A stretch of 1,026 nt of DNA, from assembly GCA_000004985.1 (NCBI GenBank), contig GG739608.1, one strand, 5' to 3'. This stretch comes from Naegleria gruberi. Its lineage: Eukaryota. Under the pieces are notes generated by a model. That model made no database searches, had not been told where the DNA came from, and saw nothing but the letters and a program-made list of their open reading frames with translations. The position numbers and the translations under genes are program-made. Positions within the stretch are counted from its first letter, which is position 1. Every line of letters starts with the position of its first letter. This document shows, piece by piece, positions 3 through 298 of this stretch.

Positions 3-26
3 CACTGGGGTAATCTATCAGTATTG
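3..26 (+). other. Frame discontinuity (apparent 1-nt deletion or 2-nt insertion) inside the adhesin gene. Repeat-start motif H-W-G-N-L-S-V is in frame 3 (3-23) and the repeat continuation I-D-L-L-Q-N-Y is in frame 2 (23-43).
   Basis: The DNA string cactgg at 3-8 matches the repeat anchors at 299-304 and 593-598 but sits in frame 3. aat-cta-tca (N-L-S, 12-20, frame 3) parallels aat-ttg-tca (N-L-S) in the next repeat at 332-340. Frame 2 has TAA at 11-13 and frame 1 has TGA at 25-27. The HW-to-HW spacing 3 to 299 is 296 nt, i.e. 297 (99 codons) if one base is restored, matching the 294 and 303 nt periods of the following units. Confidence 0.5.
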
Positions 27-298
27 ATTTGTTACAAAATTATGCTGATCAAGATTACACTGCTGGTCGTGAATCTAAGGGTACAGTTAGTAATATTGAT
101 AAGACTTCTCTCAGTACTAAGGGTACTGTTTCTGCAGCTGTCGCTGGTGTTGTTACCTATACTGCTCCTTCTAATAAGTATGTTGGTCCAGATTCCTTCA
201 AGGTTACTGCAACTGATGGTCTTGCCACTGTCACTTACACTGTCAATATTAATATTCTTAACTCTGCTCCTATTACTAATACCAAGACTTCAACTGTT
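3..298 (+). repeat. Adhesin domain repeat unit A (coding tandem repeat, about 99 aa after correcting the frameshift), anchored on HW at 3-8; ends ...GPDSFKVTATDGLATVTYTVNINILNSAPITNTKTSTV.
   Basis: Protein-level alignment to units B and C: KGTVSAAVAG--VVTYTAPSNKYVGPDSFKVTATDGLATVTYTVNINILN versus KGTVSIVAGSQTLLYSAPTNPGALGADVVTYKFTDGAQ--ALENTDTVVNVNLIN. Confidence 0.7.

Follow-up and report, generated by a model that had tools for sequence, protein, structure and literature searches.

Long tandem arrays of Big_9 domains are known from the giant adhesins of the bacterial tandem-95 type, such as WP_168661575.1 of Ferrimonas lipolytica. These belong to the same domain family as the array analysed here (PF17963, NF012211) and, like it, are built of units of around 95–100 residues. 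Arrays of this bacterial type are also present in nuclear genes of Naegleria, where a VWA and Cys-rich region is fused to them at the C-terminus (loci L002, 2001–9369, and L003, 2153–9555). Two such proteins are of concern here, XP_044559448.1 of N. fowleri (FDP41_006209, 2312 aa) and XP_044547813.1 of N. lovaniensis (C9374_005926), both annotated simply as VWFA domain-containing protein. A literature search found no description of this Naegleria giant protein.

The DNA considered here, called the window, is a stretch of 1026 nt with around 40% G+C. The best explanation overall, to which we give a probability of about 0.78, is that it comes from an orthologue of the giant Naegleria proteins and has lost one base near its 5′ end, either as an ordinary lesion or as an assembly error.

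All features described are on the plus strand. The window has a single long reading frame, frame 2. The ORF extends from nt 14 to nt 1026 and on past the end of the window, and its 337 codons without a stop encode 3.4 Big_9/tandem-95 units: the remainder of unit 1, the whole of units 2 and 3, and the beginning of unit 4. At its 5′ side it is closed by the only stop in frame 2, a TAA at 11–13. Frame 1 is shut by a TGA at 25–27, while frame 3 has no stop from nt 3 until a TAA at 348–350, which would end any frame-3 translation after an off-frame tail of about 111 codons, rich in Leu, Ile and Val. In all three frames the stops are where the original prediction placed them.

Unit 2 (VHW..., 98 codons) occupies 296–589 and unit 3 (VHW..., 101 codons) 590–892, and both open with the hexamer CACTGG, encoding the His-Trp anchor, at 299–304 and 593–598 respectively. 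Unit 4, of which only the beginning is present (893–1026), opens with GKW. The identical hexamer is found at 3–8 in unit 1, in frame 3. The Trp codons are thus at 6, 302, 596 and 899, with spacings of 296, 294 and 303 nt. When one base is restored to unit 1 the units become 99, 98 and 101 codons long, as had been claimed, and the distances from W to W fit tandem units of around 95–100 residues.

The frame-2 product matches the Pfam family Big_9 (PF17963) in three stretches, with 61.1 bits against a cut-off of 23.6 (E=2e-16), and Cadherin_4 (PF17803) and Cadherin_5 (PF17892) likewise exceed their own cut-offs. The NCBIfam model tand_rpt_95 (NF012211) gives 58.5 bits, which is below its whole-protein cut-off of 90, as is expected for a fragment of 3.4 units. 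Tandem Repeats Finder detects no repeat in the window at the DNA level, because the units are too diverged. Unit 4 deviates from the D-x-D-G-D pattern that is usual in Big_9 units. It contains the conserved motif GACSDSDSLD, an example of the sequence G-A-C-x-D-x-D-S-L-D that holds the only Cys of the window and is invariant in the window and both Naegleria proteins, as is F-V-x-F-x-G-x-x-S-N-x-V-G-G. A Big_9-like stretch with 35% identity to residues 55–124 of the window is also present in the Nanoarchaeota single amplified genome AM-311-D13 (JBHPEA010000021.1; L001 3001–3222). Exact 50-mer and 36-mer searches of GTDB genomes, IMG/VR and JGI metagenomes, megablast against phage and plasmid records, and protein-pattern scans of genomes, viral contigs and metagenomes gave neither this DNA nor any close relative of it; the single locus that they yielded was this unrelated nanoarchaeal one.

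An exhaustive search with HMMER found 3345 relatives, mainly giant proteins at around 30% identity. Only two of them are collinear with the window and align from end to end, and these are the N. fowleri and N. lovaniensis proteins: residues 2–337 of the query align with 1258–1587 of XP_044559448.1 and with 130–460 of XP_044547813.1. In a MAFFT alignment the window is 50–51% identical to either protein over 327 aligned residues, unit for unit, and the identity between the two Naegleria proteins across the matching stretch is 69%. A word-indexed protein search had returned only matches of around 30% identity, all shorter than about 800 aa. That search missed XP_044559448.1 even when a 468-residue piece of this same protein was used as the query, and so a finding of "no close homologue" from a word-indexed search is unreliable for giant repeat proteins.

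Both orthologues are encoded on nuclear contigs of around 630 kb, with eukaryotic genes around them. The N. fowleri gene is interrupted by three spliceosomal introns, located close to its ends. On the strength of the collinear alignment, the gene in the window is judged to be an orthologue of the nuclear Naegleria VWFA-domain giant proteins, and not a bacterial gene. Its most probable source is a heterolobosean amoeba that stands further from N. fowleri than N. lovaniensis does. The original prediction of a giant adhesin gene therefore stands as far as the giant repeat gene is concerned, and falls as regards a bacterial adhesin. After Naegleria, the next-best relatives are bacterial giant proteins at around 30% identity (for example that of Ferrimonas lipolytica). 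The presence of Big_9 arrays in Naegleria nuclear genes may reflect an old horizontal transfer, or else a shared ancestry of the domain.

Alignment to orthologues had been proposed as a check on the break, and it is informative. In N. fowleri the junction reads ...TTW-SSTIGVT-IDLLANYVDPDYTASRESLGTV, and in N. lovaniensis ...VVW-SSTGID-IDLLVAYSDADMTAGFETLGTI; in the window it reads HW-GN in frame 3, followed by (S)ISIDLLQNYADQDYTAGRESKGTV in frame 2. The orthologous W sits 8–9 residues ahead of DLL, giving a pattern W-x7/8-DLL. Both orthologues are coding across the junction in one frame and without interruption, with no intron and no gene boundary: in N. fowleri it lies within an exon of 6357 nt (2427–8783), and the N. 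lovaniensis model is intronless. Since both orthologues have such a junction, a conserved W is to be expected a few residues before the I-x-I-D-L-L strand, with coding sequence continuing upstream of it. A gene start at this point was considered and rejected: frame 2 lacks an ATG until about nt 428, and the orthologues run for more than 1200 residues further upstream.

Homology in frame 2 reaches back to nt 14–17, where both HMMER and MAFFT place I-S-I-D of the window opposite V-T-I-D and I-D-I-D of the orthologues. With one base restored, the window has W, six residues and then D, which is 1–2 residues shorter than the orthologous unit in both Naegleria species. This is the same spacing as is found in the N. 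fowleri unit W687 (W-NRSVDC-D-VKAND).

The HW at 3–8 is the same anchor as in units 2 and 3, in frame 3, as originally proposed; both its position and tests against chance bear this out. All units, whether of the window or of the two Naegleria proteins, have a W at the anchor position, and in coding DNA of the family about half of the in-frame W residues are preceded by H or K. In 10.9 kb of this DNA, HW arises off-frame at a frequency per position of 0.0011 (+1) to 0.0041 (+2). An HMM for the unit was built from 14 paralogous unit N-termini. It gives HWGN+x+ISIDLL a score of 24.2–24.7 bits, compared with 21.1–22.4 bits for readings with a frame-2 prefix, a frame-1 prefix or no prefix. When off-frame four-residue prefixes from the family were used as decoys, the score of HWGN was attained by 0.39% (+1) or 1.7% (+2) of them. 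The visible upstream part is 13–16 nt long, and the HMM margin is small, at 2–3.5 bits.

Codon usage provides further information. The downstream ORF has a strong preference for codons ending in T (T3 = 0.67), with Gly encoded by GGT in 23 of 26 cases and Asn by AAT in 20 of 24, and CTG, GGG, CAG and GAG are unused in 327 downstream codons. Apart from ATG and TGG, the only codons ending in G that are used in 14–1026 are AAG and TTG. A model comparing coding with off-frame codons gives +4.4 bits to nt 3–14 in frame 3 (cac-tgg-ggt-aat), in which the final two codons at 9–14, ggt aat (Gly-Asn), score +4.55 and +2.70 bits and are the last in frame 3 to score as coding. By contrast, nt 2–13 in frame 2 (tca-ctg-ggg-taa) score −13.4 bits, and the ctg, ggg and taa of this reading are all three unused downstream. 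From nt 14 onward (tct atc agt att gat) frame 2 is coding-like. Over the first four codons the difference between frames 3 and 2 is thus 17.8 bits; among 323 leave-out control positions taken from this gene the largest was 7.8. Likelihood models that make no use of the anchor position put a frame-3 upstream region ahead of the frame-2 and frame-1 alternatives by 4–10 bits, even though the rare residues H and W are counted in these models against frame 3. The evidence that nt 3–14 are read in frame 3 is good but not overwhelming, and it comes from four codons.

The same comparisons bear on a reading in which the upstream sequence is in frame 1 (gtc act ggg, or V-T-G) and there is one extra base at around nt 10–13, the CACTGG being then an off-frame gtC-ACT-GGg. 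In its favour, GTC and ACT score well as codons (+1.1 and +3.5 bits), and among 3630 +2 positions there are 10 at which CACTGG arises off-frame. Moreover V-T-G-V aligns weakly with S-T-G-I and T-I-G-V of the orthologues, the S-T-G of N. lovaniensis lying three residues past its W. Nevertheless we consider this reading unlikely. It requires a particular inserted T, or else GGG together with GTA, which make up 0 of 26 Gly codons and 1 of 38 Val codons respectively, and its likelihood is 3–8 bits below that of the frame-3 model. Its HMM score is 21.6–21.8 as against 24.2–24.7 bits, and the observed score is attained by only 1.7% of the +2 decoys.

The frame therefore changes from 3 to 2 close to the 5′ end of the window, and the position of the change can be narrowed down. 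If a single base is inserted anywhere after nt 11, up to about nt 25, the ORF opens from nt 3 through to nt 1026; with an insertion at nt 10 or earlier, the TAA comes into frame. The latter holds for the G4 run also, and an indel in that run was accordingly rejected. A breakpoint scan of the codon scores has its best break after nt 11–14. Taking the breakpoint scan, the insertion scan and the unit HMM together, the missing base (or 3n+1 nt) is best placed at about nt 11–17, for example by a change of aat-tct to aatct, or of aaa/aag-tct to aatct. Exactly one base is probably missing.

In this respect the original prediction needs to be corrected. It had placed the break at 21–28 and had drawn a parallel between N-L-S in frame 3 and N-L-S in a neighbouring unit. 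HWGNLSVx+DLL scores 20.3 bits, which is below the score with no prefix at all (21.1), whereas placement at nt 11–17 gives 24.2–24.7. The N-L-S parallel, and LSV with it, is not borne out: among 327 downstream codons CTA does not occur and GTA occurs a single time, and nt 17–25 are assigned to frame 2 by the HMM as well as by the alignment with the orthologues, with I-S-I opposite V-T-I and I-D-I. The statement that there is no homopolymer longer than ttt is also wrong, as there is GGGG at 7–10 and AAAA at 36–39, although neither run can repair the frame.

We hypothesise that the window lies inside a very long gene of the single-exon type, encoding a giant extracellular protein of tandem Big_9 (bacterial Ig/cadherin-like) units, in which, compared with the intact coding sequence, one base (or 3n+1) would be absent somewhere in the region of nt 11–17. 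The reading frame would then be frame 3 upstream (...H-W-G-N) and frame 2 downstream (S/x-I-S-I-D-L-L-Q-N-Y...). A ribosome arriving from upstream would keep to frame 3 and stop at 348–350, and the rest of the protein would be lost. The sequence gives no sign that the cell corrects the break.

No decay is visible in the 337 codons downstream: they contain no stop, their codon bias is extreme, and the residues that are invariant in the family are kept. This implies that the lesion is very recent or allelic, if the organism carries it at all. The leading explanations given originally, a point indel or a sequencing or assembly error, are supported. Between a deletion made in sequencing or assembly and a real frameshift mutation, very recent or allelic, we have a slight preference for the artefact. 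Long-read errors are concentrated in long homopolymers, and this preference is weakened by the fact that the site (taatct) has no long homopolymer.

A precedent for such an artefact is found in N. lovaniensis. Its orthologue on PYSW02000025.1 (L003) is annotated as two genes, at 2153–5863 and 6001–9555. One base is absent from a run of A (GGACAAAAATTGCC) at 5838–5842, where frame 2 (...FDAGQK) passes to frame 1 (KIAITSFVNDLDAADV), in comparison with GQQYSIASYVSDADANDV in N. fowleri. When the run is restored to A6 it gives GQKIAITSFVNDLDAADV, matching GQQYSIASYVSDADANDV. An A5 homopolymer is a classic site of long-read error. The N. lovaniensis assembly is a PacBio assembly (Table 1, PMC9928731), and the break is probably a PacBio homopolymer error, the two models being one gene. 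It resembles the break in the window in being a single missing base that causes a −1 shift inside a Big_9 unit, with intact ORFs on either side. It differs in that it occurs in an A5 homopolymer, around 165 codons upstream of the equivalent position, whereas that of the window occurs in taatct, with no run of more than 2 bases.

Two breaks in the same gene could also be taken to mean that truncation by frameshift is real in the organism and recurs in heterolobosean amoebae, as a eukaryotic analogue of on/off switching or of the quick loss of a big adhesin-like protein, or that some non-canonical recoding produces a full-length protein. We regard this as improbable. A one-base break of frame in a long repeat gene is common and well understood, and calls for no new mechanism.

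A further reading dispenses with the change of frame altogether. The whole window would be in frame 2, with the TAA at 11–13 arising from a nonsense mutation or a base-call substitution, or being read through; the conserved W would be just off the window (NNg, ending at nt 1), and the CACTGG coincidental. This is very unlikely, because CTG and GGG are absent from 327 downstream codons and nt 2–10 score −8.9 bits even without the stop, and because so good a mimic of the anchor is found in just 0.39% of +1 off-frame prefixes. It does have the merit that W-SLG*SIS-IDLL is exactly as long as the W-SSTIGVT-IDLL of N. fowleri, with S opposite S, and that the HMM score rises to 22.4 bits when a hypothetical W is added. 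A variant genetic code with TAA as a sense codon was also considered in this context, and was rejected: the 341 frame-2 codons include a single TAA, Gln is encoded by CAA in all 7 cases, and the orthologue ORFs, of 2119 and 1184 codons, are free of in-frame stops.

Because the gene is an orthologue of nuclear Naegleria genes, an intron had to be considered. In this reading a spliceosomal intron would end with nt 1–21 (tctatCAG|T), the exon would start at nt 22 in phase 2 (xxT ATT GAT, or x-I-D), and there would be no lesion. The source is probably a eukaryote, the introns of the orthologue end in CAG, and there is a YAG after pyrimidines at 14–21. The sequence tctatCAG at that position resembles the N. 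fowleri acceptors ..AACCAG, ..AAACAG and ..ATTCAG; yet nt 1–21 are richer in G+C than those introns, with 48% compared with 21–40% in the three of them. In addition, neither orthologue has an intron at or near the position, and the chance that nt 1–21 would mimic HW, GGT AAT and the I-S of the strand is well under 1–2%. An intron is thus highly unlikely. Two introns within the window were examined separately. A 44-nt intron from GT(10) to AG(53) repairs the frame, but deletes the conserved IDLLQNYADQ. A mini-intron GTAATCTATCAG (10–21) has GT...AG ends like the Naegleria splice signals (GTAAGT ... CAG), which is probably a coincidence; with 12 nt, a multiple of 3, it is too short and cannot restore the frame.

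Programmed −1 ribosomal frameshifting, or phase variation, as the means by which frames 3 and 2 are joined in expression is scarcely credible, even though −1 is the usual direction of programmed frameshifting and the gene has a −1-type break in a second species too: as the original prediction said, there is no slippery heptamer (X XXY YYZ), here in any frame of nt 1–66, and no support for either process, given that the downstream fold is unremarkable (nt 15–110, MFE −20.5 kcal/mol, z = −1.58, with 14 of 200 shuffles as stable), that the longest nearby tract is the G4 at 7–10, where an inserted base puts the TAA in frame, and that both orthologues have the junction in a single frame.

A missing base in a giant gene of this kind is of consequence chiefly for annotation. 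If left uncorrected, it would lead a gene caller to split or truncate a surface protein of several thousand residues, or to invent a false intron, and such a mis-annotation seems to have occurred in the N. lovaniensis orthologue. There is also a more general caution, that what looks from its repeats alone like a giant bacterial adhesin can be a eukaryotic gene. Since Big_9/tandem-95 arrays fused to VWA exist in Naegleria nuclear genomes, an assignment to bacteria on the repeats only is unsafe. If the frameshift is genuine, it would mean that a candidate adhesion protein of a free-living amoeba has recently been inactivated or varies between alleles, and would be of modest interest.

The window can finally be compared with the systems noted at the outset. 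With the Naegleria orthologues it has in common the order of individually recognisable Big_9 units and the W anchors, and the motifs HKxG, LDP, GACxDxDSLD and VVNVN are present in the window and in both orthologues. The preference for codons ending in T is also alike (RSCU r = 0.74–0.84). The bias is stronger in the window, with a T3 of 0.67 compared with 0.48–0.49 and a GC3 of 0.19 compared with 0.30–0.32, which suggests either a different species with a stronger bias or high expression. The frame of the window is broken immediately after the W of the unit that matches N. fowleri W1252, whereas the orthologues are unbroken there. The C-terminal VWA and Cys-rich part is a feature of the orthologues, and would lie outside the 1026 nt of the window. 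The bacterial tandem-95 adhesins, unlike the Naegleria orthologues, have only around 30% identity to the window and no unit-by-unit collinearity. By contrast, the genes to which it is truly related are eukaryotic and nuclear, have spliceosomal introns and encode a VWA domain at the C-terminus.
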